A stretch of DNA of 64,000 nt from Rhodothermia bacterium. Lineage in GTDB: Bacteria > Bacteroidota > Rhodothermia > Rhodothermales > JAAAOL01. The DNA lies in contig JAUIDY010000018.1 in assembly GCA_030428385.1 (NCBI GenBank), positions 474-64,473 on the forward strand, given 5' to 3'. The position numbers and the translations under genes are program-made. The notes below the pieces were generated by a model, which made no database searches, was not told the DNA's origin, and worked only from the letters and a program-made list of their open reading frames with translations. Positions 19,792 to 40,021 of the stretch are shown here, piece after piece (position 1 is the stretch's first letter; every line of letters begins with the position of its first letter).

Positions 19792-19869
19792 TGAAAGGCC
19801 GGACAGGCATAAGACGATACTGACTTGTACAAGATTTGAAATAAGGTTGAGGTTTGTATCTTGCCTCGT

Positions 19870-20760: not shown

Positions 20761-20774
20761 TCTCACATTATTTA

Positions 20775-20912
20775 TGTGGATAAGCGGGTTTTCTAAAAGT
20801 TATCCACGCATAAACGGTACACCAAGCCTACGCATAAACGGTACACCAACACCCCTATTTTCACGCATAAACGGTACACCATCCTGTAATAAGTAATTTA
20901 ATACCTGTAATA
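20775..20912. repeat. Iteron origin 1 (DnaA boxes, 3 iterons, AT-rich tract)
   Basis: TGTGGATAA 20775, TTATCCACG 20800; ACGCATAAACGGTACACCA at 20806, 20830, 20863; AT-rich CCTGTAATA x2. Confidence 0.88.
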
Positions 20913-21209
20913 GAATCCCTTTTCGTGTGGAAAACCCCTTCTCAGCGTTTCCGGCATTTCCCCATCGACACCGCCCTCGCGAACGAGAATTTAAAAGGCT
21001 TATAAGGGACTCCGTTATTGCAAGGGAGACTTTACAATAACGGAAATAGACCACCCTACCTTGTAGGCATCCCTGTTTTTCTTGTGCTGCCCCTCCCCTG
21101 GTATACTCTCCTGTAGCACCGGCTCTTTAACCAACGGGGGGCTTTCAGTGCGGCAAACACCAAAAGCCCCGATCCCCCTAACCACCGCTATGACAGATAG
21201 GAGGTTTTC

Positions 21210-21701
21210 ATGGCTACGAAATCTACGGGGAGAAGTGCCTACCAGCTCGCGCTTTTTTCCCACCTCCCCTTCTACACCACCCGCCTTGTTTGCGAGCAGC
21301 ACTTCCCTTTTTGCGACCGCTTGCGCGTCACTACACCGGAAGAAATAGCCCTCTTTCTCATGGACTACTTTGCAGACAAAGACCGGGAAGAATTCCTCGT
21401 TGTGCTGCTCGACACCGCCAACACCGTGTTCGGGCTGGTGCAGGTCAGCGTCGGCGGCCTTGCGGCAAGCATCGTAGAACCACGGCAGGTTTTTAAGACG
21501 GCTATTCTTTCCAATGCGGCCGCGGTCATCCTGGCGCATCAGCATCCCAGTCAGAATCCCGAACCCAGCCGTGAGGACATCCGCATCACGCAGCAACTCG
21601 TAGAGGCAGGTAAGCTGATGGGGATTCCCGTCCACGATCATTTGATCATAGCGGGAGCTACCTACACCAGCCTCAGAGAGCGAGGACTTATGAACACATA
21701 A
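21210..21701 (+). CDS. radC: RadC-like JAB-domain protein (short mobile-element form)
   Basis: REEF, PRQVFK, HQHPS...PSRED, VHDHLII. Confidence 0.92.
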   Translation: MATKSTGRSAYQLALFSHLPFYTTRLVCEQHFPFCDRLRVTTPEEIALFLMDYFADKDREEFLVVLLDTANTVFGLVQVSVGGLAASIVEPRQVFKTAILSNAAAVILAHQHPSQNPEPSREDIRITQQLVEAGKLMGIPVHDHLIIAGATYTSLRERGLMNT

Positions 21702-21730
21702 TCTGCGCTCGCCCTTATGAGGTCCCGCTC

Positions 21731-21768
21731 AAAAGCCCACCAGCGACCATCGCCGGTGGGTCTTTTTT
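21731..21768. terminator. Bidirectional intrinsic terminator
   Basis: AAAAGCCCACCAGCGA-CCA-TCGCCGGTGGGTCTTTTTT between convergent genes. Confidence 0.75.
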
Positions 21769-21815
21769 ATTCGATGACGAGGCACCGATCCTCGTGCCTT
21801 CTGATTTGAAACGAA

Positions 21816-22085
21816 CTACCCTTCTCCCCTACCCTGAAGCGCTGCATAGGCAGCCTCGGCTAACCACTGGTTGCGGGATATCGAGATGGGACGTTTGGCA
21901 ATGGCCTCGTCGATCTCACGTACGAGGTTTGTTGGAAGCCGAACGGTGATTTTCTGAATATCATCGACCGGTGCCTTTTCTTCGCCACCGGCGTGCGACC
22001 CCCCTTTCTCAATCAGCGCGTCTACATCGACGCCGGATGATTTTTGATCCGGTGTGTTTTTGCTTGCTTTGCGTCCAATAGCCAT
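21816..22085 (-). CDS. Ribbon-helix-helix centromere-binding protein (type Ib ParB/ParG-like)
   Basis: Downstream of parA; KITVRLP...REIDEAI...SRNQWLAEA. Confidence 0.8.
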   Translation of the reverse strand: MAIGRKASKNTPDQKSSGVDVDALIEKGGSHAGGEEKAPVDDIQKITVRLPTNLVREIDEAIAKRPISISRNQWLAEAAYAALQGRGEG

Positions 22086-22094
22086 AGGTTAGCT

Positions 22095-22160
22095 TGATGT
22101 CGTTGTGAGGTCACAATAAGGTCATGTTGGTGTCACTATGCCACTGATGTGACCTCATTT
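22095..22160. repeat. parS-like 11-bp tandem repeats (second array)
   Basis: TGATGTCGTTG TGAGGTCACAA TAAGGTCATGT TGGTGTCACTA plus degenerate units. Confidence 0.7.
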
Positions 22161-22789
22161 AAGTGCCGAAACAAGGTCTCTACCTCGTGAATGGCTTTTT
22201 TGTCTTTTGGCTTGTATTCCACAACACCGAGACCTTCAGCGACTGCGGTCGCAAATGCTTTGCGATTGCCCAGGTAGGCCGGGATAAAACCAAGCACGTC
22301 AGATTCTTGCAGAAAGGCCGCGGCCTCGTCGTTGTCACTCCCCTGATGATCGGCGCGGTTGATAAAGGCAAAGGCTCGCAGGCCAGGGTTCGCCGGGGTC
22401 ATTTCTTCGATGAGATGTTCGACGTGTTCAAATGTCCACACATCGAGCGAGCGCGGTGCAAACGGAACGAGCAGGATATCGGCTACTGTCAGCGCGGCGC
22501 GTTGACTGACCGTATCCCGACCACCGGTGTCGATGATGATATCGTCGTACTTATCCTTCAGGCGAAGCACCTGGTCGCGTACCGCCTTCCCTGTTAGCTT
22601 GATGCTTGTATAGCCGGGATCACCTCCAAAGCGCTCGCTACGAAGCGCGGTGAAGTCCGTAGCGCTTTCCTGATCATCGGCATCGATGAGGAGGACATCC
22701 CGATCTGCAAGCGAGGACATTACGGCAAGGTTGGTTGCAACGAGGGTCTTCCCTACTCCCCCTTTAATTCCGCCCGATACGATTATCAT
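22136..22789 (-). CDS. parA: ParA-family partition ATPase (type Ib)
   Basis: Deviant Walker A KGGVGKT, IDAD, IIIDTGG; 217 aa with no N-terminal HTH. Confidence 0.95.
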   Translation of the reverse strand: MIIVSGGIKGGVGKTLVATNLAVMSSLADRDVLLIDADDQESATDFTALRSERFGGDPGYTSIKLTGKAVRDQVLRLKDKYDDIIIDTGGRDTVSQRAALTVADILLVPFAPRSLDVWTFEHVEHLIEEMTPANPGLRAFAFINRADHQGSDNDEAAAFLQESDVLGFIPAYLGNRKAFATAVAEGLGVVEYKPKDKKAIHEVETLFRHLNEVTSVA

Positions 22790-22792
22790 GTG

Positions 22793-22869
22793 TGATGCCA
22801 GAATGAGGTCACAATGGGGTCAATATGTTGTCTTGTTGCCATCAATATAAGGTCATTATAGGGCCAGTG
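22793..22869. repeat. parS-like 11-bp tandem repeats upstream of parA
   Basis: TGATGCCAGAA TGAGGTCACAA TGGGGTCAATA TGTTGTCTTGT TGCCATCAATA TAAGGTCATTA TAGGGCCAGTG. Confidence 0.75.
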
Positions 22870-22906
22870 CAATTCCTGGTTAGCACTTATGTATCCTTCC
22901 CAATCA

Positions 22907-22935
22907 TTGACAACTCGTTCAAGGCCAGGTACGCT
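22907..22935 (+). promoter_or_regulatory. Sigma70-type promoter
   Basis: TTGACA-17 bp-TACGCT. Confidence 0.6.
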
Positions 22936-23100
22936 TGGGGGTAGGTAAGCTCCCATGGCCTACCGCACTTCCCTCCCCTGTTTCCCTGAGCTTGACAGGA
23001 AGCATAGCACGTAGATATGGCTTAACAGCAATGCTTTCCAGGCCTTCCTGCTTCGCTTCCCCAGGGAACAGTGGGAAGCGAAGGGGAGCGTGATTATCAT

Positions 23101-23802
23101 ATGAATGGATTTCAGCACAGCATTGAAGACATCGCAGAAGCGACCGGTTTAACGCGGAAATACATCGACCGCTGTTATCAGTTGATGCCTTTCTTGGAGG
23201 CCTACCGGCGCATGGCCGCTGACGAAAACAAGTATTATTACAACAGCGGAGCCTTTGACGTTTTTCAGCAGATCGCTTCTTTAAAAGCGCAGCACAACAA
23301 TCGCCAGCAGATAAAAGAAATCCTCGAATCGTCGGGGCTAGGAAACCAAGGGGAAGCTGAGGAAGAGGGGAGGGAAGAGCAGGGAAGTGCCATGGAAAGT
23401 CTGGAAATGGAACCCGCCTCGGTACAGCCACCACCAGACACAAAGCTCTGGATCGATGCGCTTCAGACGTCAAGCCGCCAGGCTATCGACGCACTTAGAG
23501 AAGCGATGGCCGCAAAGGATGTCGTGATCGAAGAGAAAGACTCCAGAATCCACGCCCTTGAAGACCGTATTCTGGCACTACCAGATGGCCGCACCCCTGA
23601 AGAAATCAAGGCGGGGCTTGCCGAGAAAGAACGGCAGGAACAGGAAATCGAAGCCCTGAAAAAAAAGGTAGGGGAGGAGCAGGGACGCGCTGCCGAGCGC
23701 AAGCGGCTAATAGGAGCGTTGGAGCAGCTTCCCACCTGGGGAAAGCGCAAGCAAAAGAAAGAACTTCTTTCTGCCATCAAGGCCCTCGATGGGCAGACCT
23801 AG
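23101..23802 (+). CDS. HTH plus coiled-coil plasmid protein
   Basis: MerR-like N-terminal HTH (SIEDIAEATGLTRKYI), acidic linker, heptad-rich C-terminus. Confidence 0.75.
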   Translation: MNGFQHSIEDIAEATGLTRKYIDRCYQLMPFLEAYRRMAADENKYYYNSGAFDVFQQIASLKAQHNNRQQIKEILESSGLGNQGEAEEEGREEQGSAMESLEMEPASVQPPPDTKLWIDALQTSSRQAIDALREAMAAKDVVIEEKDSRIHALEDRILALPDGRTPEEIKAGLAEKERQEQEIEALKKKVGEEQGRAAERKRLIGALEQLPTWGKRKQKKELLSAIKALDGQT

Positions 23803-23803
23803 A

Positions 23804-23928
23804 ATGATCGTGCTTTTGAGTTCAAAGTATTTACATGATCGTGCTTTTGGGTTCAAAAAGAGGCCAGATGATCGTGCTTTTGAGTTCAAAACATCGTGCT
23901 TTTGAGTTCAAAAAAGGCCTGTGGATAA
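23804..23928. repeat. Iteron origin 2 (4 iterons + DnaA box)
   Basis: ATGATCGTGCTTTTGRGTTCAAA at 23804, 23835, 23868; 20-bp copy at 23893; TGTGGATAA at 23920. Confidence 0.88.
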
Positions 23929-24039
23929 CCGGGGAAAGTCGCCCAGCCTTGCCCGTTTTATTCCTTGAAGTAGGGAAGCCTCACGTATATCTCACTACTC
24001 GTCTTTCACTAACGTAAAGGGAAATGATAGAATGGGTCT

Positions 24040-25251
24040 ATGAAGCAGAAAGACCCTGAAACCACAAAAAAAGGAAAGTGCGGGGTTGTTCGACTAGAGC
24101 GCAATGTAGACAGCTTGCCCATCTGGGCGCCCAAAGCCTACGCAGGCATGTTAGAGCGGACGTATACGCTTTCCTGGAAAGGGGAGGGGGCAGAAGTACA
24201 GGTGATGGCACTTCCGAAATATGGACAACTCCGGTCACTCGACAAACTCGTACTCACGGCGCTTATTTATTTGTGGAACGAACAAGGCCGTAGGGCAGAT
24301 GGCCGCATTGCATTTCAGATTGCTGGACTCATCAAGCTACTAGGGCACAGTCATCAAGGCGGGCGGGTGTACCGGCGCATCAAGCAAAGCCTTCGCCGCC
24401 TCAAACATACCGGCCTCCAGTTCATCAACTGTTTTTATGACAAACAAGAAGAGACCTACAAGACCACACGGGATACCAACATCCTCTATGAACTGCTTAT
24501 CGTGGAGCCCAAAAAAGACCAAACGGGGTATGAATGGACCGTTGCGTATCTCAACCTTGATGTAGCAAACAACCTGCTCGGCAATTACACCCGGCCCATT
24601 TCGTTGCCGCTACTTCTCCGCCTAAGCGAACGCGGTATTCTGTTCGAGTCCTACATAAACGGCGTGCTTTGGCGCAGGCCGGTGATTACAAAAGACGTCT
24701 TTGAACTGTGGCAAGAGCTTGGACTCAGCACAAAAGGATACGGGTACGGATCACGCCTTGCAGCGAAGATGCGCGTGGATCTGGATACCATTGCCGCAGC
24801 CTCAAGTAGCTTGTTGGAGCGCTATGAATTCTCGGATTCAAAGACCAGGGCGCGAAGCAAGAATCTTGTGTTGTACCGCAAAGCACGTATGCCAAGGCTG
24901 CCCCGTTCCTCTTATGGAGACGAGGCATTGGATGAAGTGGATATTCAGGTGGAGCAAATTCGCTCGATGCTCCGGGACGCCAGCAACAATGATTCAAACA
25001 TTCGGCGCATTGCTGAGCGCATGCCTGCTCCGGTGATCGACAAAGGCGTATTTGATGCCTGGGGACGCTACCGTGACCGGCAGACCTCCAACCCGGCAGC
25101 GTATTTTGTCGGCATCATGAAAAAGAAAGCGATTGAGCTCGATATTGATCTTGGGATGGGTCGGAGATCAAAGCAGGAGGGAGGACGAGGTGAAATCCAG
25201 CATGCCCTGGAGACGCCCTCAGATTGCCGTGGTGAAGACGTTGTCCGCTAG
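24040..25251 (+). CDS. Second plasmid replication initiator (winged-helix Rep-like)
   Basis: Follows iterons; DKLVLTAL...F.IAGLIKLLG..GGRVYRRIKQSLRRL; C-terminal NPAAYF. Confidence 0.75.
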   Translation: MKQKDPETTKKGKCGVVRLERNVDSLPIWAPKAYAGMLERTYTLSWKGEGAEVQVMALPKYGQLRSLDKLVLTALIYLWNEQGRRADGRIAFQIAGLIKLLGHSHQGGRVYRRIKQSLRRLKHTGLQFINCFYDKQEETYKTTRDTNILYELLIVEPKKDQTGYEWTVAYLNLDVANNLLGNYTRPISLPLLLRLSERGILFESYINGVLWRRPVITKDVFELWQELGLSTKGYGYGSRLAAKMRVDLDTIAAASSSLLERYEFSDSKTRARSKNLVLYRKARMPRLPRSSYGDEALDEVDIQVEQIRSMLRDASNNDSNIRRIAERMPAPVIDKGVFDAWGRYRDRQTSNPAAYFVGIMKKKAIELDIDLGMGRRSKQEGGRGEIQHALETPSDCRGEDVVR

Positions 25252-25400
25252 ACGCGGGTCACCACCTTTTCGGTCAAAACTCATTGCCAGACTCCGATTA
25301 GAAGGTGAAGAGGTTAATACGTAAACGGGATTTGGGCATTTTAGAGAAAGACTATATTTTTGTTTAATCTGAATATCAGCACAAAACTTTTTTACCAGCA

Positions 25401-25739
25401 ATGTCTGAATTGAACTTCGTTTTCCCTGATCCCCGAGAAAAATTTATTCTAGTCGAGGAGTATAGCGGCTGGAAACTCCAAGGGAGGCATATCAAAAGCT
25501 TGCCGGAAGGACGACGTACAAAATATTCCCTATGGGTAGAGAATGAAGTAGCAACATTCTTTGTCGATGTTGAATCCCCAAAGGTGGTTTTAATTCCTTT
25601 GGGCCGCGAAGAAGAGTGGGAGGAGTTGTTGAAATATCAAGCTGTCCTCAAAGCAAAGGAATTAATAGAAGCGGGTGAATTCGGATCAGGAGAGACATAT
25701 ACGTACAATTTTGCCGATCTGATTGAACCTGAGAGCTAG
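25401..25739 (+). CDS. Hypothetical protein
   Basis: 112-aa ORF in a low-GC patch with no competing ORF. Confidence 0.6.
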   Translation: MSELNFVFPDPREKFILVEEYSGWKLQGRHIKSLPEGRRTKYSLWVENEVATFFVDVESPKVVLIPLGREEEWEELLKYQAVLKAKELIEAGEFGSGETYTYNFADLIEPES

Positions 25740-25760
25740 GGTGCCCACAAAAGAAACCGA

Positions 25761-25797
25761 TGTCAAAGATTGACATTGAAGCAAGTGGGTATATACT
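25761..25797 (+). promoter_or_regulatory. TA promoter with palindromic operator
   Basis: TGTCAA-AGA-TTGACA palindrome overlapping -35; TATACT 16 bp later. Confidence 0.65.
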
Positions 25798-25824
25798 GGA
25801 GCTATGACAACCAAGGTACAAGCC

Positions 25825-26085
25825 ATGAATGTATCACTAACGCCGCAGCTCGAAGCCTTTGTGCGCGAGTTGGTTGGTTCGGGGCGGTACAACTCTGCCA
25901 GTGAGGTGGTACGCGAAGCGCTGCGTTTTGCCCAGGAGCGGGAGCAGGTGCGTGCCATTAAGCTAGAAGCACTACGCGAAGAAATCCGCAGAGGTCTTGA
26001 AAGCCCGTCGCTCGGGGAGTGGGATGTCGAGGCGTTCTTGAACGAAGCCCGTGAGACCTTCGCCGAGGGTAACGTAGCAACCTGA
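25825..26085 (+). CDS. parD: ParD-family RHH antitoxin
   Basis: MNVSLTP...SGRYNSASEVVREALR. Confidence 0.92.
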   Translation: MNVSLTPQLEAFVRELVGSGRYNSASEVVREALRFAQEREQVRAIKLEALREEIRRGLESPSLGEWDVEAFLNEARETFAEGNVAT

Positions 26086-26390
26086 TGGGCCGCATTGAAC
26101 GAAGACAACAGGCTAACCTTGACCTGTACGACATCTGGGAGCACATCGCACGGGAAAACAGCGCGGCGGCTGATAACGTCATCCGTCGCATCCACAGGAC
26201 ACTTCAAAAGCTCGCCGATATGCCAGGGTTAGGACGCACTCGCAGAGAACTTGCCCCTAACCTCCGCAGCTTCGTCGTCATGCAATTTGTGGTTTACTAC
26301 GTGCCTCTTATAGATGGCATAGAAGTGGTTCGGGTACTCCATAGCAGGCAGGACGTGGACGATGCCTTTGGATTTGAATCCGATGAATAG
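26085..26390 (+). CDS. parE: ParE/RelE-family toxin
   Basis: DLYDIWEHIARE, PGLGRTRREL, IEVVRVLHSRQD; overlaps parD stop. Confidence 0.92.
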   Translation: MGRIERRQQANLDLYDIWEHIARENSAAADNVIRRIHRTLQKLADMPGLGRTRRELAPNLRSFVVMQFVVYYVPLIDGIEVVRVLHSRQDVDDAFGFESDE

Positions 26391-26418
26391 AAAAAACCCG
26401 GCTATGCAGTCGGGTTTT
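26391..26418. terminator. Bidirectional intrinsic terminator
   Basis: AAAAAACCCGGCT-ATGC-AGTCGGGTTTT. Confidence 0.75.
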
Positions 26419-26432
26419 GTGTTTGGTGCAAG

Positions 26433-26741
26433 TCAATACTCTAGGGGCAAGAGCATCGTCCAGTAGTCGTAATCTGTGAGCTGCTCTTCCGTGAACTCAC
26501 CGGAGCGCTTCATGCGGCCGCTAAGCTGGCAAATGCACCAGACCACGCGGCCATCATCAGACTCGTAGACTTGCAGGTAATCAACACCGTTCTCTGCTTC
26601 CACAACGTGTAAGAGATCACGGTAGATTTCAGCGATTTCGGGCGATGTGAGCGCGTTTGCGACCCCCTGTGTGATCACGCCCCGGCCGTCGAAGTGATAA
26701 TCGCCTTCGCATTCTTGCAGCTTTCGTGTCCATGTTGCCAT
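26433..26741 (-). CDS. Small plasmid protein (DUF960-like)
   Basis: ITQGV...DYLQVY...TMLLPLEY; AGGAG upstream. Confidence 0.65.
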   Translation of the reverse strand: MATWTRKLQECEGDYHFDGRGVITQGVANALTSPEIAEIYRDLLHVVEAENGVDYLQVYESDDGRVVWCICQLSGRMKRSGEFTEEQLTDYDYWTMLLPLEY

Positions 26742-26831
26742 TGCCTTTTGTCTCCTTTGGCCTGTGGAACTGTTCCAGCGTCCAGTATGAGGGAAGGGGA
26801 GCAGACGTCAAGCAGGAGACATCAAGGTTGG

Positions 26832-27032
26832 CTATGCGTGGATGTCGGATGGTTCGCCGTGTTCGCGAAGCACCACCCGGCCGCTTAGGGGCAAGGCATC
26901 AAGCATGATCGACAGGCCTTTGCCATCGCTGTGCATCCAGGCGGCCCCGATCTTTGTCCAGCTACCATTTGCCTCGTCCTCCTGCACTACATAGGCGATA
27001 TAGGAGGGCTTGTTGGTTGGGTTGTTTTCCAT
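26832..27032 (-). CDS. Small conserved mobile-element protein (DUF736-like motif)
   Basis: WTKIGAAW.H.DGKGLSI.LDALP..GRVVLR. Confidence 0.7.
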   Translation of the reverse strand: MENNPTNKPSYIAYVVQEDEANGSWTKIGAAWMHSDGKGLSIMLDALPLSGRVVLREHGEPSDIHA

Positions 27033-27103
27033 AGACGTATGTAAAAACTGATAACGAGCGCTATTAGGCTCAGCAGTCAGTATAGCATGAACGCGGCAAA
27101 TGG

Positions 27104-27497
27104 TCGGTGCTCTCAGATGCCGGGCATCCACCAGCACCGATGCGGGCAAGGCCCGCAGGTATGAAGTGGGCTATTCCAACCTGTTTCCATACGCCACTTC
27201 ATACCTAAAAACGAGGAAAAGCCCGATGGGCTTTGCTGTTTTCTTTTTGCGCCGTCGGTCGCTCCGCTCCCGACTTCGACCCGCTTCCACCTCCTTCGCT
27301 GCTTACTACCCGTGCGCTACTTCGGACACAGGCACTCCGCTGACGCTGCGTGGGTGGACGACGCGTTGCTTGGACGAGGCGTGCTCTTTTGCCAGATCCA
27401 GCCGAACGCCTCGCCAGCGTGCCGAAGTCGGGAGCTTGTCGCCCCGCACACCTCACCTACGTTCGGGATGCGTGGCAACCCCGACGGCGCAAAAAGA
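27104..27497. other. Multi-hairpin non-coding element (ssi/Frpo-like or structured RNA)
   Basis: Perfect inverted repeats 27242-58/27481-97 (17 bp), 27266-78/27423-35 (13 bp), 27157-69/27194-206 (13 bp), 27104-11/27133-40, 27375-82/27406-13. Confidence 0.7.
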
Positions 27498-27668
27498 GGG
27501 ACCGCACTTGCGTGCGCGCAGGAGTTATCCACGGATGCGCTAAGACAACGCGCGTGTGCTACACTAGAGGCTCAAAAAAACGAAAGGCTCCGAAGTATAC
27601 GTCAGCCCCGTTTATGTGCCGTGCTGGCCCCACACAAGCCCATGTACGGCTCGTTTTGGGGTTGTCTT

Positions 27669-28952
27669 ATGGCTCGTGAGTCCAACACAAATCATGTCAC
27701 GACGATTGCCAAGCGCGAAGGCTATGGGGGTAGGGGAGAGATCGTTACGCTAGATGCCGAGGCTAGGCGTCGGCATCTTTACGTTGTGGGAAAATCCGGC
27801 AGCGGCAAATCGACCCTGATCGGCAACATGATCGTGCAGGACATCCACCAGGGGAGAGGCCTTACCTTTTTAGACCCGCACGGGGATCTGGCGCTGGATC
27901 TGTTAGATCAGATTCCACCGGAGCGCATCACCGACGTGCTTTATTTCGACGCGGCGTGTGCGGATTATCCGGTTGGATTTAACCTGCTGGAGAAAAAGCG
28001 GGCAGCCAATCATCTTGTGACATCAAGCGTGATCGACGTGCTGCGCTCAATGTGGCAAGACTCGTGGGGGCCGCGCATGGAATACATCTTGTCCAACGTG
28101 GTTGCAGCGCTTGGTGAGCGGGAGGGGAGTACGCTTTTGGGCGTGCAGAAACTCCTGGTTAATCGGGATTACCGGCAGCACACGCTGCGTTTTGTGCACG
28201 ATCCGATCATCCAGGCCTTCTGGCATCACGAGTTTGACCGGTGGCCGCAGCGATTGCAGCAGGAAGCCATCGCGCCGATTCAGAACAAAGTCGGTCGCAT
28301 CACCGGGCACCCAGTCTTGCGTAATATTGTCGGGCAGGTGCGCTCGACGTTCGACCCGCGCCGGGTGATGGATGAAAAACGGATCGTGATTGTCAACCTC
28401 GCGCGGGGCGTGTTGGGAGCCGATGCTTCCAACCTGCTGGGGTCGCTCCTGGTGGCGGCCTACAGTCTGGCTGCCTTTTCACGCGCCGACACGCCCTCAG
28501 ATCGACGCTCACGGCACAGCCTTTACATTGATGAGGTGCAGCATGTAGGGGCGGGAGCGCTGTCTACGCTGCTTTCAGAGGGCGCTAAGTATGGGGCAGA
28601 GATAATTGCGGCGAACCAGTTCACCTCGCAGCTCGATGAAAGGGTGCGTGATGCCATCTTTGGCAACGTGCAGACCATTATGTCCTTCAGTGTAGGAGCG
28701 AGTGACAGCCTGCATCTGGAGCGTGAGTTCAGCCAGGACGTGAAGCAGCAGCAATTCACCGAGCTTGCCCCCCACGAGGTGTTTATCAAGACAGGAAGCT
28801 TGCCCGAGGAGCGGGTGCCTTTTCGGGCAAGGACGCTTCCAGCGCTCGGTATGTATTACGGCCGTAGCAGATCGGTTGTCGGGCGAAGCAGGACGCAATT
28901 TACGAGGCCAAGACAGAAAGTGGAGGAGAAAATAGCCCGGTTCTTACAATAG
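27669..28952 (+). CDS. VirD4/TraD-like (HerA/FtsK superfamily) ATPase 1, no TM anchor
   Basis: RRHLYVVGKSGSGKS, LDPHGD, LYIDEVQ, ANQFTSQL, IFGNV. Confidence 0.85.
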   Translation: MARESNTNHVTTIAKREGYGGRGEIVTLDAEARRRHLYVVGKSGSGKSTLIGNMIVQDIHQGRGLTFLDPHGDLALDLLDQIPPERITDVLYFDAACADYPVGFNLLEKKRAANHLVTSSVIDVLRSMWQDSWGPRMEYILSNVVAALGEREGSTLLGVQKLLVNRDYRQHTLRFVHDPIIQAFWHHEFDRWPQRLQQEAIAPIQNKVGRITGHPVLRNIVGQVRSTFDPRRVMDEKRIVIVNLARGVLGADASNLLGSLLVAAYSLAAFSRADTPSDRRSRHSLYIDEVQHVGAGALSTLLSEGAKYGAEIIAANQFTSQLDERVRDAIFGNVQTIMSFSVGASDSLHLEREFSQDVKQQQFTELAPHEVFIKTGSLPEERVPFRARTLPALGMYYGRSRSVVGRSRTQFTRPRQKVEEKIARFLQ

Positions 28953-29024: not shown

Positions 29025-29657
29025 ATGAGCCGTTTTCTCTTTATTATTTTTCTACTCGGCCTTGTTTCATGGCCTCGCTTAGTTTCAGCGCAGTACGGGT
29101 TCGATGTCAAAACACATTTGGCCGACAAACACGAGTTGAAGGTGGTGAAAGAAGGGGTGTTGTATGCCATTGAGGAAGCGCCGTGGGCCACCATGAAAGA
29201 AATAGGGGAGGACTATTCTCTCTGGCTAAAAGGCATACAGCGCCAGCATGCGGGAGACTCCTTGCGCATTTACGTTGATGTGGAGCTTCGTTCGCCTGCA
29301 ATGTTTACCTCCGGCGAACTGATCGGGCGATACAGATCGAGCATTTCATACCACTGGGGGGAGGCTAAAGAATATGCTCAAGAAAGCATTGATACAGACT
29401 TGTTCTTGTCTTCATCCGCTACGGATTATGAAAGCATTTCCGAGGATATGGGACGTATGATCAAGCTGGTTTCTAGTTTTACAGGAGAGCCTATCATAGG
29501 AAATGTGTCCGCCACACTTTTAGCTCAGCTAATAGAATCATTGCCCAGCACCATGCAAGGAAATCCATCTCCCGTCGAGCTTATGGAAAGCATGCTTTTG
29601 GGACACCAGGTGCTCGCTGACCTTGAATCGGTGATTCCTAGTATCCGCTCTTATTGA
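29025..29657 (+). CDS. Exported hypothetical protein
   Basis: Signal peptide ending VSA-Q; 210 aa; hairpin downstream at ~29685-29712. Confidence 0.7.
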   Translation: MSRFLFIIFLLGLVSWPRLVSAQYGFDVKTHLADKHELKVVKEGVLYAIEEAPWATMKEIGEDYSLWLKGIQRQHAGDSLRIYVDVELRSPAMFTSGELIGRYRSSISYHWGEAKEYAQESIDTDLFLSSSATDYESISEDMGRMIKLVSSFTGEPIIGNVSATLLAQLIESLPSTMQGNPSPVELMESMLLGHQVLADLESVIPSIRSY

Positions 29658-29752: not shown

Positions 29753-29992
29753 TTAATCGTCACCGTTGGATACGGGGTCACCATCGTAAGCACGCGCCCC
29801 TTCTTGGGGTCTCCACACGGATTCGCCGTGTTCGAGGACTTCGATCAGGGTGCGACCCTTGTAGCGCATAGAGCGCGGAGCAGGCTGGTTTCCGGTATGA
29901 ACCTGAACCATTTCGGCGGCTCCCGCCAGAAGCTTGTCAAAATTGAAACCCAGAGTTTCTTCTTGCTGGGTTGCTTTGGGTTGGTCAGGCAT
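29753..29992 (-). CDS. Small hypothetical protein
   Basis: 79-aa ATG ORF filling an intergenic gap. Confidence 0.4.
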   Translation of the reverse strand: MPDQPKATQQEETLGFNFDKLLAGAAEMVQVHTGNQPAPRSMRYKGRTLIEVLEHGESVWRPQEGARAYDGDPVSNGDD

Positions 29993-30108: not shown

Positions 30109-30142
30109 TTGACTCCAGATCAAGTACCATTTATTATCTTTG
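30109..30142 (+). promoter_or_regulatory. Promoter upstream of NYN leader
   Basis: TTGACT-17 bp-TATTAT, overlapping a Bacteroidota-type TAnnTTTG (TATCTTTG). Confidence 0.65.
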
Positions 30143-30150
30143 CATACCCC

Positions 30151-30215
30151 CCCTGTTCCTTTCGAGGGCAGGGCGCGAGGCCGCATCGGGAAACCGGTGC
30201 GGTCTCTGCTTTTTT
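30151..30215 (+). ncRNA. Candidate two-hairpin leader RNA/attenuator before NYN RNase
   Basis: UUCG-capped stem 30151-30173; 13-bp GAAA-capped stem 30177-30206; T-tract follows. Confidence 0.55.
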
Positions 30216-30233
30216 ATGCTACGCTGACGCTTT

Positions 30234-30863
30234 ATGAAGCCCCGTACCCACATCTACATTGATGGCTTTAACCTTTTCTATGGTGCTCTCAAAGGCACTC
30301 CTTACAAATGGCTGGATCTAAATCGTCTCTGCGAATTGCTCCTGCCGCACAATGACATACAGTCGATCAAATACTTTACGGCCCGAGTGACGGCGCGATC
30401 AAACAAACCAAACCAAGCCACCAACCAGCAATTCTATCTGCGAGCGCTCCAGACGCTTCCGAACCTGGATATCATCTATGGTCACTTTCTCTCGAATGAA
30501 GTGCGGATGCCTTTAGCCAAACCAATCCGTGGCCAATCAGCAATGGTGAAAGTCATCAAAACCGAAGAGAAAGGGTCGGATGTCAACATCGCAGCTCACC
30601 TCGTGAACGATGCACATAGAGGCCTCTTCGATGTAGCCGTCCTGATTACGAATGATTCAGATCTATTAACTCCCATGCAAATTGTTCAAAGAGAACTTCA
30701 TTTACCTGTAGGTCTCATCAGTCCATACAAACGTATTGCGCACGTCCTGGCACGGGAGGCAGCATTTAAGAAGAAAATCCGAAGCGGGGTGCTCGGAGCG
30801 AGTCAGCTTCCGCACACGCTTCGAGATGGGCAGGGGATGTTCCATAAACCAGCGTCATGGTAG
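30234..30863 (+). CDS. NYN/LabA-like PIN-fold ribonuclease
   Basis: YIDGFNLFY, EEKGSDVNIA, ITNDSDL catalytic acidic motifs. Confidence 0.92.
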   Translation: MKPRTHIYIDGFNLFYGALKGTPYKWLDLNRLCELLLPHNDIQSIKYFTARVTARSNKPNQATNQQFYLRALQTLPNLDIIYGHFLSNEVRMPLAKPIRGQSAMVKVIKTEEKGSDVNIAAHLVNDAHRGLFDVAVLITNDSDLLTPMQIVQRELHLPVGLISPYKRIAHVLAREAAFKKKIRSGVLGASQLPHTLRDGQGMFHKPASW

Positions 30864-30919
30864 AGGACGTAAAATATGACGCAGAGATCATCGTGGCGAA
30901 CCAGTTCTTCTCGCAACTC
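30862..30919 (+). pseudogene. 58-bp relic of a VirD4-like ATPase paralogue
   Basis: 46/58 nt identical to 28577-28634; EDVKYDAEIIVANQFFSQL vs EGAKYGAEIIAANQFTSQL. Confidence 0.7.
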
Positions 30920-31000
30920 TCGATCGTTTTCGGTGAGAGGCTCTGGCTAGACCTATGACCCGAGCCCCTGACACACTAACTAATTGAAACACCCCCGGGC

Positions 31001-31064
31001 CGCGAGGCCACATCGGTTTCCAGATGTGGCCTCAGCATTTTTTGCTACGCCTCTGTGAGGCCCC
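31001..31064 (+). repeat. Diverged second copy of NYN leader hairpin and start region
   Basis: CGCGAGGCCACATC-GGTTTCCA-GATGTGGCCTC AGCATTTTTTGCTACGC...GTGAGGCCCC vs 30174-30243. Confidence 0.75.
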
Positions 31065-31111
31065 AATCATAGACTTCTCCAATTCAGAATCGGAACAAGA
31101 AATCAAAGTAG

Positions 31112-34789: not shown

Positions 34790-35737
34790 TCAAGTTGTAA
34801 GAAGCCGGCTTTGCTTGTCATCACGGGCATTGTTCCATGCATGGTGCAGAGCACCACCAATTGCCTCTTTTTGCGTTGAAAAAAGTAGGTGCTTTCCGTT
34901 CTTACGCGGATAGGGCTGCTCGTCAGTTATTATCTTCGCTGCCTGGATAAAGTGATCCCGTCGCTCTGCACTGGTTGTCAGAAAGAGCGTGCGCACGCCC
35001 GCAACGCCGAAGTGCTTTTTGTGTAAGCCTTGCTTCCACGACTCATGGTACGACATGAGCTTCTTATATATCGACGAGCGGTCTGGATTCGCTGAATGCA
35101 CCGGCATCGTCCCTCGATCCACTTCGACAAAGTAGTACGACGAAGCAATCTTCTCGGGCCTTCCATTTTGCTTCAGGCCGAAGGCTGCGTCCGGCATGAG
35201 TCCTACGTCCTCGGCCCCAAAGTCATACCCCGATATATCCACTCGCCAGGAGAGGGGAGAGGTGCCGGTGAACTCGCGCTGTGGAATAAACGTCACATCG
35301 TTTCGGCTTTTACAATCAACCTCGATGCCGACTAGGAAGTCGGCTACGGCCAATTCATGGGCAAGGAAGAGGCGTCCCACAGATCGATTTTTCCATTGCC
35401 AGTTTACGCTGCCGCGCGGGAGGCCTTTTCTCACGCGCAGGGCCTCCGCGCCCTGGTCTGCCAAGGCATACACCATCGTGCTTTTGCCACCAAAGCGCTG
35501 ATAATCGAGTTGCACTTTGGGGCGGCCCAAGAAGCCCGCGTGGAAGAGTTCTCTAAGGCGGTCGATGAGCCGCTTGCTTCCATAGCCACCCGGCGGGCAC
35601 AGCAAAGAAACCAGATGGTCAGAACGGAGGAATCTCTGCCGGTAGAGATAATCCAGAATCGCGTAATCCCGCTCCGTGAGATGGACGTTCTTTTTCTGTG
35701 GCCCGCGTACAAAGCGCCGCCTTTTCTTCAGAGTCAT
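34790..35737 (-). CDS. Replication-relaxation family protein 1
   Basis: LTERD..IL..LYRQRFL wHTH, HELAVADF, PDAAF...FVEVDRGTM. Confidence 0.85.
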   Translation of the reverse strand: MTLKKRRRFVRGPQKKNVHLTERDYAILDYLYRQRFLRSDHLVSLLCPPGGYGSKRLIDRLRELFHAGFLGRPKVQLDYQRFGGKSTMVYALADQGAEALRVRKGLPRGSVNWQWKNRSVGRLFLAHELAVADFLVGIEVDCKSRNDVTFIPQREFTGTSPLSWRVDISGYDFGAEDVGLMPDAAFGLKQNGRPEKIASSYYFVEVDRGTMPVHSANPDRSSIYKKLMSYHESWKQGLHKKHFGVAGVRTLFLTTSAERRDHFIQAAKIITDEQPYPRKNGKHLLFSTQKEAIGGALHHAWNNARDDKQSRLLTT

Positions 35738-35978
35738 ATACTGGCAGTGTAACAGATGGCCCCACGCTTTTGCGGCTGACATCCTCGCACCGCGAGGCAT
35801 GTGGTTTCCAAGAGGGGAAGCCTGAGGTGTTGATGGAGGCATTCTAGGGGGGCAAGGCGGGGGAGGGTCTACCAAGCGACATGCTACCCGTTGAACGCCA
35901 CGGGGTGACCGAAGCACAGGGTTATGCTACGCTGGGATCGGAATGCTCTTTTTGCTTTAACCAACCCAGACGAAAGCT

Positions 35979-36887
35979 ATGACTTTGCATGCTGCATTCG
36001 ATGCTCAGAGGATAGGAGACGGGGACCTTAATGGCCGCGTCGAGATTGTTCACCAAGACCGTCCGCATGGCCCTGTGCTTCACACCGCAGATGCCCTAGA
36101 GGACCTCTTCACCAGCCAGCGCTGGATGCCCTCCAACCGGCGAAGCCGCATTGCGTACCCAGCGCCGCAAGAACTGGTCGTGCCATTCCTAAAGCGTCTC
36201 GAACCGCTCCATGATCTGGGCATCGACCTTCATGTCGAAACGTCGCATCCAACCTCGGTGCAAGACCCCGCGACCGAAGAGGTGCGCACCGCCGTTGGTC
36301 GTTTTTTGGTCGAAGCACGCATTGGAAGACACGATGAAACCGACCACCAGCAGGTCATTGGTTTCGTGGCAGCGCTCGACATTAAAGTGCCAGAGGTGCA
36401 GGTCTACTACGGCCGTAACGCCAAGGCCTGTATAAACCTTGCCATCTTCCGCCGGGATCACTATGCCAAGGAGAGCCTCCTTACGGGCGGCGAAGATGTC
36501 ATTTTTGCCATGACCGAACGCTTCGTGAGTGGCTTTGGCAGCGACGAACGTACGTTCATCGAACACGTAAACCGCCTCAAGGAAACAGTATGGAACGAGG
36601 CGCAGATCAACGAACGGGTGGGGCGGCTCTACCGGCGTTTTCTAACACGCGGCAACCTGACCCAGACGCTCAACTATGCGATCAAACTTCTCAGTGAGCC
36701 CAACAGCCGCTACGCCATAAATCCCGACGGCACAACAACTGCCTGGAACTTCTTTTCTGCCATGACCCAGTACGTTACCGATAAGGCGTACCTGAACACA
36801 AAGGCGGAGAAGACGCTTCAGATTGCCGAAGAGGTGTGCGCAGACCTACTGGGACTGGCCTTCGATGGGCAGGCTGATCCTACATGA
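35979..36887 (+). CDS. DUF932-like phage/plasmid protein
   Basis: ACINLAIF and TAWNFFSAMT resemble the DUF932 C.N and T.W..YNA.T motifs. Confidence 0.55.
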   Translation: MTLHAAFDAQRIGDGDLNGRVEIVHQDRPHGPVLHTADALEDLFTSQRWMPSNRRSRIAYPAPQELVVPFLKRLEPLHDLGIDLHVETSHPTSVQDPATEEVRTAVGRFLVEARIGRHDETDHQQVIGFVAALDIKVPEVQVYYGRNAKACINLAIFRRDHYAKESLLTGGEDVIFAMTERFVSGFGSDERTFIEHVNRLKETVWNEAQINERVGRLYRRFLTRGNLTQTLNYAIKLLSEPNSRYAINPDGTTTAWNFFSAMTQYVTDKAYLNTKAEKTLQIAEEVCADLLGLAFDGQADPT

Positions 36888-36967
36888 GGCCACATTTTTC
36901 AAGACCTACGGTGCCACCCGTGGGTCTTTTTCCCCACGGTGCTATTTGCGTGGCCACAGGGGTGTGT

Positions 36968-37444
36968 TTACCAGGCTTTGAGTACGTCTTTGATCCCTTT
37001 CTCGTCGAGATCGGTGTTTTCAAGCAGGTCTTGTACCGCATCCATGACGGCAAGGTGAACAACCGTATTAAAAAGGTGGCTTATGTCGTCTCTCAAATAA
37101 TCTTCAGACCTTAACCGATAGTCGTCGTCAGTCTTAAGTTTTCGCATCCAAAGGAGCCGTCTCAAGGCTAGATATTTTCCAAAATCCCATGCTCCGATAA
37201 CGATGGCTGCATGCTGGTTGGTGCCTCTAACGACCAGACACTTGCGGGAAATCCCCTTGCCCTTGCCCGTAAGGAGCCCCACTTTCTCGGCAAAAACCTC
37301 GTACCCACACGAAATACCACCCACGTCAATGTCATTGAGGTGGGTGATTACGTATTCATAGAATTGATCCCTCATTCCGCGGGCTCCGTAGATTAGTTGC
37401 CCCCATTCATTGAGGATGTCCCGGTTGTTTAGCGCCTCTGGCAT
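36968..37444 (-). CDS. Hypothetical protein
   Basis: 158-aa ORF downstream of relaxase 2 in the same orientation. Confidence 0.65.
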   Translation of the reverse strand: MPEALNNRDILNEWGQLIYGARGMRDQFYEYVITHLNDIDVGGISCGYEVFAEKVGLLTGKGKGISRKCLVVRGTNQHAAIVIGAWDFGKYLALRRLLWMRKLKTDDDYRLRSEDYLRDDISHLFNTVVHLAVMDAVQDLLENTDLDEKGIKDVLKAW

Positions 37445-37513
37445 GCGTCTAGGTTAGCTGGTGGAAAGGCCTGACTTAATAATAGACACAAATGGGAGGG
37501 AAGTATAACCTTT

Positions 37514-38380
37514 TCAGGCGATTTTATACCGCCGGTCGTCGTTTGCGTCGAGTGAACACCATACGTGGTCAAAGGCCGTTTCTTCCGTAACCTGGTCAAA
37601 CGTGGTGAGCCAGAAGAAACGGTAGAGCGGAGGGGCACTGGTGCCCAGCATGGAGCGGATATTCTCAACCCGCCGCGGCGACGTGGTCACGATCAACAGA
37701 CGAAACCGGGAAAAGGGAGCGCAATGAAAGTCCTCGGCGTACCCTTTGTATTTGCCTTCACGGGCGTACCCTTCATAGAAGCGTATCATTTTCCGGATGC
37801 CTTTTTCGGGGTTGCTGATGGTCTCCGTACCCCGGTCGATCTCCAGGAAATAAAGGGCCTGCTTGCTTTCTTTTCCGAGGGCAAACACCGCGTCGGGCGT
37901 GTGGGATATTTTCTCCTTCGGGTCGGTGATGCTGAAGGCCACGTCCTTGATGTACTTGGTTACGCGCCCCGATAGATGCTTGGCCCCGTAGTGTTCAGGA
38001 ATGAAACCAAGGAGAGTAACCGGTGACCGCTCTGTAGCCTTTGTGAGGGTGATGCGAAAGTCGCTGATGGCACAAAAGTGCTTCATGAAATAATAGTCCT
38101 TCGGAGGCTTGGTGCCTGCACTCCAAAGGAGGTCATCCGGGGAGACGTTCAAGAGTTCAGCTACAAGGTTTGCGCCCCGTGTAGTAAGCATGTACGTCCG
38201 CTCGTTGAGGTTCGGGACGGTGAAGTGTCGAAGGAGCTTGTGGGTCGCAAGGGTAGACAAGCGGCGCTGCGCCGTACGCGCGGAGGGGAAGTGAAGGCGC
38301 ATGACCTGGGACGTCGTCAGGTAGCGGTACCTGTAGACAGAGAGGAGGACGTCGGTGTCTCGTTCGGTGATCGGGTACAT
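37514..38380 (-). CDS. Replication-relaxation family protein 2
   Basis: ITERD..VL..VYRYRYLT, HFCAISDF, PDAVF...FLEIDRGTE. Confidence 0.88.
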   Translation of the reverse strand: MYPITERDTDVLLSVYRYRYLTTSQVMRLHFPSARTAQRRLSTLATHKLLRHFTVPNLNERTYMLTTRGANLVAELLNVSPDDLLWSAGTKPPKDYYFMKHFCAISDFRITLTKATERSPVTLLGFIPEHYGAKHLSGRVTKYIKDVAFSITDPKEKISHTPDAVFALGKESKQALYFLEIDRGTETISNPEKGIRKMIRFYEGYAREGKYKGYAEDFHCAPFSRFRLLIVTTSPRRVENIRSMLGTSAPPLYRFFWLTTFDQVTEETAFDHVWCSLDANDDRRYKIA

Positions 38381-38395
38381 ACCGCCTCGCTTTTG

Positions 38396-40021
38396 TTAGA
38401 ACTCATCAGGATCAGACCAATCAAACGGGGCAGGGGAGCCGTCCGGTGAACCTTCCTCCGGTGTGGTAGGGGCACGTCGGGTGCCTTGGGCCGGGGTTCC
38501 GTAGTTGGTGCGTGAGCGCTCGACGGCGTCTTCCTTGATAGCCCAATTGGGCGAACGCGTAACGAGCTGCGTTCGCATGGGAAGGGTGGTGGTGCCAATC
38601 TTGGCGTAGGTCGATCCCACCCTGAGCGCAACCAGCGCGTCGGGATCGACTTTCTCCACCTCCAGGCCTGACGTAGAAATGAGTTCAGGGGAAAGGCGCT
38701 TGGCATCTTCGCGGGACACGACAAAACTGATCATGGTGGAGACGTTGCCGAAAATCTCCTTGAGCAGCCCCGGCGGGATCTGCCCGGTTTGTTGGTGGGC
38801 CAAGGTGAGGGAGAGGCGGTATTTGCGAGCGCGGGAAAGGAGCTTTTCGTAGGACGTGCTCGCGGTTGAGGTGAATGCCTGAAACTCATCGATGTAGAGA
38901 TAAAAGCGTCGGCGTTTTTTCTTCGCCATGTTGGCGCGGCCCATGACGGCAAGCTGAAACTTCGAGACAATAAGCTGGCCTAGAAGCTGGCTGGTCTGCT
39001 CGCCTAAGATGCCATCGGAGAGGTTGAAGAATGCAATTTTCCCCTCATCCATAATGCGCCGAAAGCTGAGGCTCGACTGGGGTTGGCAAAGCACGTTTTT
39101 GACGTACCGAGGCCTCGTGAACCGAGAGAGCCGGTAGACGATGGGATGGTGCGCGTTCTTCGGAAACTGCACATATACGTCGCGCCAGAAGTGCAGGGTG
39201 TCGTGGTCATCTAGCTGCGACAGGATTTGGTTTCTAAAGTGGGTGTTTTCGCGGTCGAGCAGGCGCGGGATGTCGAGCAGGGTGGTGCCGGGGAGGGGGA
39301 GGAGGGCGTAGAAGGATTGCCGTAGAATCTCATTGGTGCGCGGGGTGGATTCACTTCCCATGAGCCGGTTGAAAATGGTCATGTTTTCGTCGGCCCGGAG
39401 GTCGAGGTCTTCGCCTTCGTCAAGGTGTAAGGGGTTGAGCGATACAGGGAAGTGGGTGTCTGCCGGGTTGAAGTAGATGACATCATCTAGGCGGTGCGCA
39501 GGGACATAGGGCAGGAGTTCTTCGGTGATCATTTCTTGTTCAGGAGCGATCACCCCGACGCCGTTACCCGCCTCCATATCCTGTATGATCATCTGCCGAA
39601 GGAGGGTGGTTTTGCCAGAGCCAGACTTGCCCACGATGTAGACGTGCCGGTCGCGGAAATCTTGCTTGAGCTTCACCGGCACATCGCTGTCTCTCCAGGT
39701 GCCAAGCTGGAGGGCTTCATAGTCCATCATCTCCATCGCGATCATGCCGAAGAGGTCGTCAGCTTCCACCTTTTCGTCTTTAACGAGGGCTTCTATGACG
39801 CCGCTTGAGATGACCTCGCGAACGATAAAGCCGAAGTTGGACAGGTAGAACTCAACAACCTCCGCACACGCTGCCAGGCGCTCCTGTTCGGCGCGCTCGA
39901 GGTGATCTTCTTGGAAGCGTTCGCGTTGTTTTTTAGCTTCGCGATCCCTGTTCCACAAGCTAATAAAGAGGACAAGGCCAGCAAGTACAACAGCGCCAAT
40001 ACATAGCTCTTCCAAGTCCAT
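38396..40021 (-). CDS. VirD4/TraD-like ATPase 2 with N-terminal TM anchor
   Basis: TM helix, RHVYIVGKSGSGKT, LYIDEFQ, ARKYRLSLTLAHQ, IFGNV. Confidence 0.88.
   Translation of the reverse strand: MDLEELCIGAVVLAGLVLFISLWNRDREAKKQRERFQEDHLERAEQERLAACAEVVEFYLSNFGFIVREVISSGVIEALVKDEKVEADDLFGMIAMEMMDYEALQLGTWRDSDVPVKLKQDFRDRHVYIVGKSGSGKTTLLRQMIIQDMEAGNGVGVIAPEQEMITEELLPYVPAHRLDDVIYFNPADTHFPVSLNPLHLDEGEDLDLRADENMTIFNRLMGSESTPRTNEILRQSFYALLPLPGTTLLDIPRLLDRENTHFRNQILSQLDDHDTLHFWRDVYVQFPKNAHHPIVYRLSRFTRPRYVKNVLCQPQSSLSFRRIMDEGKIAFFNLSDGILGEQTSQLLGQLIVSKFQLAVMGRANMAKKKRRRFYLYIDEFQAFTSTASTSYEKLLSRARKYRLSLTLAHQQTGQIPPGLLKEIFGNVSTMISFVVSREDAKRLSPELISTSGLEVEKVDPDALVALRVGSTYAKIGTTTLPMRTQLVTRSPNWAIKEDAVERSRTNYGTPAQGTRRAPTTPEEGSPDGSPAPFDWSDPDEF

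Follow-up and report, generated by a model that had tools for sequence, protein, structure and literature searches.

We analysed a stretch of 64,000 nucleotides from a Rhodothermia bacterium (GenBank assembly GCA_030428385.1, contig JAUIDY010000018.1, positions 474 to 64,473), called the window throughout, in which a gene encoding an NYN-domain ribonuclease is preceded by a small structured RNA. This RNA represents a well-supported new structured RNA family, which is absent from Rfam 15 and has been overlooked by current annotation. It is furthermore a gene in its own right and more than a leader, as it stays next to NYN genes whether it lies upstream on the same strand or on the opposite strand with a promoter of its own. 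From the analysis as a whole, we give about an even chance to the interpretation that the pair is a module resembling the toxin-antitoxin (TA) systems of type III, in which the RNA would serve as the antitoxin and the NYN protein as the toxin.

The initial annotation of the window had described a near-consensus promoter, a UUCG stem, a 13-bp GAAA stem with a U tract and an intact NYN gene, and all of these were recovered in the same places or close to them. The promoter is sigma-70-like (TTGACT-17-TATTAT, 30109..30137, on the forward strand like all other features of the module), agrees with the consensus at 10 of 12 positions and would drive a small RNA of about 70 nucleotides (~30144..30215), predicted from the fold, a terminator scan and a match to the covariance model R1 described below. 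The 5' end of the RNA, placed near position 30144 from the promoter spacing, probably lies about 7 nucleotides past the promoter. The RNA starts with a single-stranded AUAC followed by a C-run, and folds into a hairpin P1 with a UUCG loop (30151-30173) and, after a one-base linker, a hairpin P2 with a GAAA loop (30175-30209), whose 13-bp core (30177-30206) gains two further pairs on the other side of a bulged U. The core stem is separated by UGC from the U6 tract (30210-30215) that closes an intrinsic terminator. The leader fold had a z-score of -3.66, and none of 200 shuffled sequences folded as well. No tandem repeat was present between positions 29900 and 31200, and the RNA of the window is therefore a single unit. 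The NYN gene (30234..30863, 209 amino acids) starts 18 nucleotides after the U tract. A terminator and promoter scan revealed no evident separate promoter in this interval, and the promoter at 30109-30137 is, as judged from the sequence, probably also the sole NYN promoter in the tandem layout.

The encoded protein matched the Pfam NYN family (PF01936) over residues 4-176, scoring 35.2 bits where the cut-off is 24.2 (E = 2.2e-8), and had no other Pfam match. It also matched the PADLOC profile HEC-09 over the full length (positions 3-202 of 203, E = 7.1e-42). Its predicted structure (pLDDT, a per-residue confidence score, of 92.1) had as top matches in the PDB a LabA-like protein (2qip, E = 5.6e-8) and the NYN domains of MARF1 (5yaa and 6fdl). 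Three aspartates, D10, D116 and D143, did not vary among 25 aligned homologues. D358, D426 and D452 of MARF1 are given as the counterparts of the HEC-09 aspartates by Payne et al. (bioRxiv 10.1101/2024.01.29.577857), and the correspondence with D10, D116 and D143 is taken here from these authors. As modelled, the NYN fold and the acidic residues are intact in the window protein. The protein family is already catalogued, HEC-09 (PADLOC PDLC04163) being presented in the same preprint as a candidate defence gene embedded in Hma, with an NYN/MARF1-like domain and conserved aspartates. That preprint mentions no RNA component, its main text having no instance of 'non-coding' or 'ncRNA'. HEC-09 was found through its embedding in a defence system; the NYN gene of the window is embedded neither in Hma nor in another multi-gene defence system. 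It is single-copy in its genome, and its distribution among relatives is patchy, an NYN match being found in 11 of 61 genomes, 8 of these matches being close. In metagenomes, 6391 proteins matched the NYN family at E <=0.001. Some plasmid records name NYN homologues '6-hydroxy-3-succinoylpyridine hydroxylase/monooxygenase HspA' (hits H7, H25, H29 and H38), which looks like a propagated misannotation.

To describe the RNA, we used a covariance model (R1) built from 14 homologous leaders, that of the window included, and a refined version of it (R2). Model R1 matched the RNA upstream of the NYN gene with 65.2 bits (E = 4e-17) and a second copy downstream of this gene with 34.6 bits (E = 5e-8), while the third-best match in the 64-kb window reached just 11.8 bits. 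Searches of the window's own genome with the leader (BLAST) and with R1 returned just these two copies, all other matches having at most 20.6 bits. The same order of elements was found before NYN homologues from relatives of the window's organism and from unrelated phyla: promoter, A/U, C-run, P1 with a UUCG-type loop, a G-G-Y-G-C-G junction, P2 and CUGCUUUUUU.

In an alignment of 90 distinct sequences, 94.5% of the paired cells could pair, compared with 35-52% when the partners were slid, and compensatory changes were seen at 17 of the 18 base pairs; none of 500 shuffles reached the observed values. As this alignment was made by fitting to the model, it is biased in favour of the structure. 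Independently, RNAalifold applied to a MAFFT seed alignment gave the same two helices, with compensation at 13 of 18 pairs. Hairpin P1 is conserved and covarying though it is not a terminator, and unpaired bases, namely those of the junction and of the single-stranded 5' C-run, are kept across several phyla. A promoter agreeing with the consensus at 9 or more of 12 positions was located 2-12 nucleotides before the start of the RNA model in 70 of 94 distinct upstream regions, as compared with 9 of 500 random segments. A consensus-like promoter was kept in every layout class described below, always on the same strand as the RNA element. No family of Rfam 15 matched the RNA at its gathering score.

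The RNA was found next to the NYN gene in 98 of 105 homologue loci, taken from the genomes of relatives, GTDB genomes and metagenomes; about 6 scored less than 25 bits. With 17 of 18 pairs compensated, this bears out, by the alignment of upstream regions, the expectation of a leader that is conserved and covarying across homologues, and the RNA is specific to this NYN family. The layout was tandem in 75 + 2 of the 98 loci, divergent in 16 and convergent in 5. The seven loci without RNA comprised one that is cut 39 nucleotides upstream of NYN (L065), three remote paralogues with about 28% identity (L024, L025 and L027), and L020, L102 and L108, the last of which bears a divergent RNA variant. 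On viral contigs, model R2 detected the RNA at 28 of 41 NYN loci. The 13 others mostly contained homologues with at most 43% identity, and inspection of 12 distant viral homologues (31-43% identity) disclosed two hairpins and a U tract right before the ATG in 8 of them.

The association also held when the search started from the RNA. Among 61 related genomes, R2 had matches in 8, which were exactly those with a close NYN homologue, and none in the 53 others. In 7 of these 8 genomes the RNA adjoins the NYN gene; in the eighth (G005), a 23-bit match lies on another contig and the NYN gene (L020) has no RNA. In a sample of 151 genomes from across the phylum, all six matches of at least 46 bits were beside an NYN gene, and two matches of 27-29 bits were elsewhere. 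Judging from the record titles, the pair occurs in Chloroflexota, Actinomycetota, Planctomycetota, Gamma- and 'Delta'-proteobacteria, a Leptospira plasmid and the phylum of the window.

When the RNA is on the opposite strand (16 + 5 of the 105 loci, with further cases on viral contigs), it is either divergent, 44-104 nucleotides upstream of the NYN gene, or convergent, within about 15 nucleotides of the stop codon. No hairpin or terminator precedes the NYN gene in the divergent loci. In the tandem loci, the NYN start codon is 0-37 nucleotides past the end of the RNA model. A tree of 113 intact NYN proteins computed with FastTree contained 88 tandem, 17 divergent and 8 convergent cases, and the layout switched at least five times on it (two convergent and three divergent clades), the RNA remaining adjacent each time. 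Since the RNA is thus on the opposite strand, with its own promoter, in five clades, an attenuator acting only in cis cannot explain the whole. The autoregulatory leader put forward in the initial annotation may accordingly be retained as a part of the story and not as all of it, since in these five clades the RNA has a gene to itself on the other strand.

The state of the NYN gene was recorded at 129 loci bearing the RNA. The gene was intact in 114, truncated or split in 13 (for instance in L039, L040, L140, L185, L186, L188 and L190) and missing in 2 (L134 and L142), of which L134 keeps a recognisable broken NYN N-terminus. High-scoring RNA copies have thus outlasted NYN genes that are truncated or gone. 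Few close NYN homologues had no RNA at all (L020 and L102). RNA without NYN being tolerated and NYN without RNA being rare is what a toxin-antidote pair predicts. As a separate observation, one Arenicellales genome (G061) has three RNA copies (L034, L140 and L142), with an intact NYN gene beside one, a fragment (amino acids 4-52) beside another and none beside the third; related Arenicellales genomes (L037-L040) have the RNA and a truncated NYN gene.

The second copy of the window, a decayed duplicate of the 5' end of the module and a further case of this decay pattern, extends over 30955..31075, as delimited by copy-to-copy alignment, R1 and the terminator scan. As the initial annotation had reported, a diverged stem with pairing-preserving changes is found there, about 140 nucleotides past the NYN stop codon: an 11-bp stem (31004-31033) is followed by AGCA, a T6 tract (31039-31044) and GCTACGC, and differs from the upstream P2 by changes that preserve pairing, both in the sequence and in the model alignment. 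The fold of this copy had a z-score of -3.73, one of 200 shuffles being as good, and both hairpin regions of the window, P2 and the downstream copy, score as intrinsic terminators. Alignment of the two copies showed a degraded promoter, an 18-nucleotide deletion spanning P1, a well-paired P2' and a U tract in the downstream one, the RNA remnant occupying 30985-31044. After the U tract, copy 1 reads ATGAAGCCCCGTACC and the downstream copy GTGAGGCCCCAATC, the latter being a remnant of the first ~15 nucleotides of the NYN open reading frame (ORF). As it holds remnants of both the promoter and the NYN start, the downstream copy is a duplication relic of the module head and not a boundary site. It had previously been proposed to be either an extra RNA or a relic leader; the remnants and the deletion of P1 speak for the relic. 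It now probably terminates NYN transcription. No same-strand downstream copy was found in 105 + 41 homologue loci; the bracketing of the NYN gene by two hairpins, initially regarded as a feature of the system, is peculiar to the window.

NYN homologues were present in 447 plasmid records, all with less than 60% identity to the window protein; by the first word of the organism name, 207 of these records were from Klebsiella, 56 from Xanthomonas and 48 from Escherichia. In E. coli, they are found on 4.6-kb ColE1-type mobilizable plasmids, whose annotation lists, apart from mobilization and Rop genes and one hypothetical protein, just the NYN gene. This NYN protein matches HEC-09 (E = 3e-34) and shares 39% identity with the window protein. 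Its gene is preceded by a promoter, tandem units of 29-33 nucleotides and a terminator hairpin with U8. Each unit consists of a C-rich linker and a 7-bp hairpin (CCUGUGG-CGUG-CCGCAGG). The number of units varies between near-identical plasmids: there are four in L194 (2333-2470, CP057945.1) and five in the related plasmids L198 and L199. Model R2 matched the last unit together with the terminator at 29.4 bits. The stretch comprising the array and the NYN gene was matched in 18 plasmid records (E. coli, Salmonella, Klebsiella and Phaeobacter), in 17 of them at 90% identity or more. A viral contig (L169, 2355-2487) carries two tandem RNA copies upstream of its NYN gene; the first copy is without U tract, which would place both on a single transcript. 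A tandem array as a general feature was considered and dropped, as Tandem Repeats Finder (TRF) detected one in L194 only out of 153 upstream regions.

Several variants of the RNA were also seen. In L103, L106, L117 and L099, the RNA upstream of the NYN gene forms a sub-family with an internal loop in P1 (UAGUA opposite GAA), to which the models give 16-22 bits; this loop is reminiscent of a sheared-pair or kink-type motif. In L172, L173, L176 and L194, whose NYN homologues have 35-43% identity, the P1 loop is of the CGUG type instead of UUCG. The RNA type seems to track the NYN protein sub-family. The NYN genes of Xanthomonas plasmids have a diverged two-hairpin element directly upstream (13-19 bits with R2), which is not sX12.

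The following working model would account for these data if the pair is a type III-like module. The module would be a self-contained gene pair made of the small structured RNA and the NYN ribonuclease. A strong constitutive promoter would produce the ~70-nucleotide RNA, most transcripts ending at the RNA's own terminator, and in the tandem layout the rare read-through transcript would be the NYN mRNA. With NYN mRNA arising from occasional read-through, the RNA would be in large excess over the nuclease. It would bind the NYN protein via the conserved 5' C-run and bases of both hairpins and hold the nuclease inactive. Should the supply of RNA fail, because the plasmid is lost, a phage shuts off transcription or the RNA decays, the NYN protein would be freed and would cut cellular or phage RNA. 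In this model, the expression of the RNA, its binding to the NYN protein, the toxicity of the latter, the trigger and the defence or addiction phenotype are inferred. More broadly, the HEC-09 NYN proteins and their RNA may form a new and very widespread type III-like TA or abortive-infection family, with a fold unlike that of ToxN, CptN and TenpN, a minimal antitoxin of one hairpin unit that can be arrayed or be encoded on either strand, and a presence in six or more phyla and on hundreds of plasmids, among them plasmids of Enterobacteriaceae; to this wider proposal we would give somewhat less than an even chance.

A number of points weigh against the interpretation as an RNA-antitoxin/toxin pair. 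None of the three recognised families of type III toxins is related to the NYN protein, NYN being its sole Pfam match, and the RNA of the window consists of one unit instead of an array of repeats; arrays are scarce in the loci sampled, L169 being the only addition to the single upstream region in 153 (L194) in which TRF found one. The one HEC-09 representative that was assayed had been cloned along with the region presumed to hold its native promoter and gave E. coli protection from none of the phages tried, and toxicity is not reported in the passages of the preprint dealing with HEC-09 (bioRxiv 10.1101/2024.01.29.577857). For the decay asymmetry there is a trivial alternative: the tandem RNA region carries the NYN promoter, and an NYN gene deprived of it would be silent. 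The loci were moreover gathered mostly by NYN similarity, and orphan RNAs are consequently under-sampled. Finally, the layout is tandem in about 80% of the loci, where the start codon follows the end of the model by 0-37 nucleotides, and a cis-acting throttle fits this too.

Such a throttle is the basis of a different explanation, according to which the RNA is a cis-acting leader and nothing else: its hairpins would limit NYN synthesis by termination and by masking of the ribosome site, maybe with the nuclease cleaving its own leader, and there would be no role in trans. The 88 tandem cases among the 113 tree sequences, the short distance between the tandem RNA and the NYN start (0-37 nucleotides), the lack of an evident separate promoter between the U tract and the ATG of the window, and the two hairpins and U tract kept before the ATG by 8 of the 12 inspected distant homologues (31-43% identity) all agree with it. 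Autoregulation through leader hairpins is moreover a familiar mechanism in rnc, rne and pnp, and a stem-loop serves this purpose in the Regnase-1 mRNA. A leader of this kind does not account for the opposite-strand RNA with its own promoter in five independent clades (25 of 113 sequences), where the NYN gene has no leader hairpin, nor for the high-scoring RNAs that outlast a truncated or lost NYN gene or the arrays of 4-5 hairpin units on plasmid relatives; also, no conserved antiterminator pairing was noticed in the alignments, though they were not searched systematically for it. A cis throttle is surely at work in the tandem loci, but not as the sole role of the RNA, and we consider it rather unlikely that the RNA acts in cis only. 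Instead of an inhibitor, the RNA might also be a cofactor, a scaffold or a guide, and so an indispensable part of a working NYN ribonucleoprotein, in which it would, for example, target G-rich RNA via the C-run or serve as a sensor. The linkage and the covariation apply equally to this case, the single-stranded 5' C-run is conserved, and the absence of the cofactor context could explain why the HEC-09 protein that was tested gave no protection. On the other hand, the 5' segment was no better complementary to the cognate NYN mRNA than to non-cognate ones (-12.7 versus -12.4 kcal/mol), which excludes one target only, RNA copies outlive the nuclease gene, and the excess of RNA that the terminator and the arrays would ensure is typical of antidotes and not of stoichiometric cofactors. 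We regard a role as cofactor, scaffold or guide as distinctly unlikely.

The last possibility that we considered is that the elements are an ordinary promoter and terminators around a small accessory gene, or sites acting at the level of DNA (a cassette boundary or recombination sites) that remained after the NYN gene was inserted. Both hairpins of the window indeed score as intrinsic terminators, the downstream one probably terminating NYN, and the gene lies between two direct copies in a region of mobile elements. Ordinary signals would not explain why P1, which is no terminator, is still conserved and covarying, why the unpaired C-run and junction bases are kept across several phyla, or why the promoter is always on the same strand as the element. 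Moreover, copy 2 is a relic carrying remnants of the promoter and the NYN start, a downstream same-strand copy was found in 0 of 146 other loci, and the element is not a genome-wide repeat. This explanation is largely refuted and appears very improbable. Separately, antisense control of the NYN mRNA by the C-run was examined and rejected as a general mechanism: the energies quoted above were nearly the same for cognate (-12.7 kcal/mol) and non-cognate (-12.4 kcal/mol) mRNAs, and the sites were spread out, 14 of 89 being close to the ribosome site.

The module of the window is located in a stretch resembling a plasmid or an integrative and conjugative element (ICE), with flanks at 19861-28952 and 34790-40021. 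This stretch encodes RepA_C (19861-20760), a ParA-like protein (22136-22789), an RPA-like initiator (24040-25251), two TraG/VirD4-like ATPases (27312-28952 and 38396-40021) and two Replic_Relax proteins (34790-35917 and 37514-38380). A secreted protease gene is also among the neighbours, and a Cus-type metal efflux pair is found at 13601-18626. Two ORFs close to the module, one of 79 amino acids on the reverse strand (29753-29992) and one of 210 amino acids on the forward strand (29025-29657), belong to no family in Pfam, PADLOC or NCBIfam, and are not conserved beside NYN genes elsewhere. No recurrent protein partner of NYN emerged from 140 neighbouring ORFs of 37 loci. Many neighbours in the homologue loci were restriction-modification genes, BREX (PglZ), helicase/NOV_C, HigB, AbiEii-like, relaxase, RepA, IS21 or TnsA, and others were housekeeping genes (dnaN, dnaK and metG). 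In one locus (L017, genome G060), a tRNA-like sequence followed by a hairpin is present about 150-230 nucleotides past the NYN stop codon, which suggests that this NYN gene was inserted next to a tRNA gene.

If the interpretation as an RNA-antitoxin/toxin pair is right, the NYN proteins would be a fourth family of type III toxins, NYN/PIN-like, and would broaden the range of RNases controlled by RNA antidotes. The 'single-gene candidate' HEC-09 would become a two-component system, which could explain its behaviour in heterologous tests, and a function would be assigned to a gene found in 6391 metagenomic proteins and 447 plasmid records. Whatever the mechanism, the RNA is a new structured family that genome annotation has missed.

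The only Rfam family touching the leader was sX12 (RF02231), which matched 30135-30210 over the full length of its model with 22.9 bits, against a gathering score of 106 (E = 0.16-0.6). This RNA is described as a 78-nucleotide transcript of X. campestris pv. vesicatoria (strain 85-10, positions 4358796-4358873), observed by northern blot and rapid amplification of cDNA ends (PMC3300014). None of three Xanthomonas plasmid NYN loci had an sX12 match at E <=0.01, and none of 151 gammaproteobacterial genomes had one above the cut-off, the lone 34.8-bit match (L143) being a plain terminator with no NYN gene nearby. The match of sX12 to the leader is therefore probably due to chance. In one X. campestris plasmid (L192, 1006-3184, NZ_CP066944.1), the NYN gene is immediately downstream of a gene annotated as the effector xopE; as sX12 is induced by HrpX, this neighbour could bear on the sX12 question. 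We found no report linking NYN genes to a partner RNA in open texts, subscription journals and preprint supplements being outside this search, and NYN, DUF88 and LabA have no occurrence in Weinberg et al. 2017.

The window protein belongs to the same family as HEC-09, which was catalogued as a lone gene, whereas it is paired here with an RNA in a plasmid- or ICE-like region. An attenuator or riboswitch leader is always in cis, upstream and on the same strand, whereas the NYN-associated RNA is on the opposite strand in 25 of 113 sequences. A type III toxin inhibits growth and processes its antitoxin RNA, which neutralises it through direct binding. Type III TA systems comprise three toxin families (ToxN, CptN and TenpN), the RNA gene being placed under a promoter and followed by a rho-independent terminator and the toxin gene (PMC13682666, October 2026). 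The likeness in layout to toxIN, cptIN and tenpIN that the initial annotation had pointed out, with the remark that their toxins are not NYN proteins, was confirmed: in the window, too, a promoter, a non-coding RNA and a rho-independent terminator are directly upstream of the gene for the putative endoribonuclease. Both kinds of module are small self-contained units on plasmids or islands, and the E. coli relatives of the NYN gene even have 4-5 tandem RNA units. They differ in that the NYN protein has an NYN/PIN-like fold and is not ToxN, CptN or TenpN, in that the type III antitoxin is made of tandem repeats whereas the NYN-associated RNA is a single two-hairpin unit in the window and in most loci, and in that divergent and convergent positions of the RNA gene occur as well, unlike in the type III layout. 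The NYN module is thus not a member of any type III family, its putative toxin belonging to none of them and its RNA in the window having no repeats. Another pair of this kind is AbiF and RCd22, an adjacent non-coding RNA of a Clostridioides difficile prophage, which is described as neutralising AbiF in cis and in trans through direct RNA-protein contact (bioRxiv 10.1101/2025.04.15.648962). In both pairs, a structured RNA is found beside a nuclease-like toxin or candidate toxin, and the RNA of AbiF likewise first became visible as a conserved motif by the gene, the abiF RNA motif, according to the same preprint. The AbiF protein is of the Abi_2/AbiD/F type, not NYN, and its RNA is a different one. 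By these function-like features, type III TA systems and AbiF/RCd22 are the systems closest to the NYN module.

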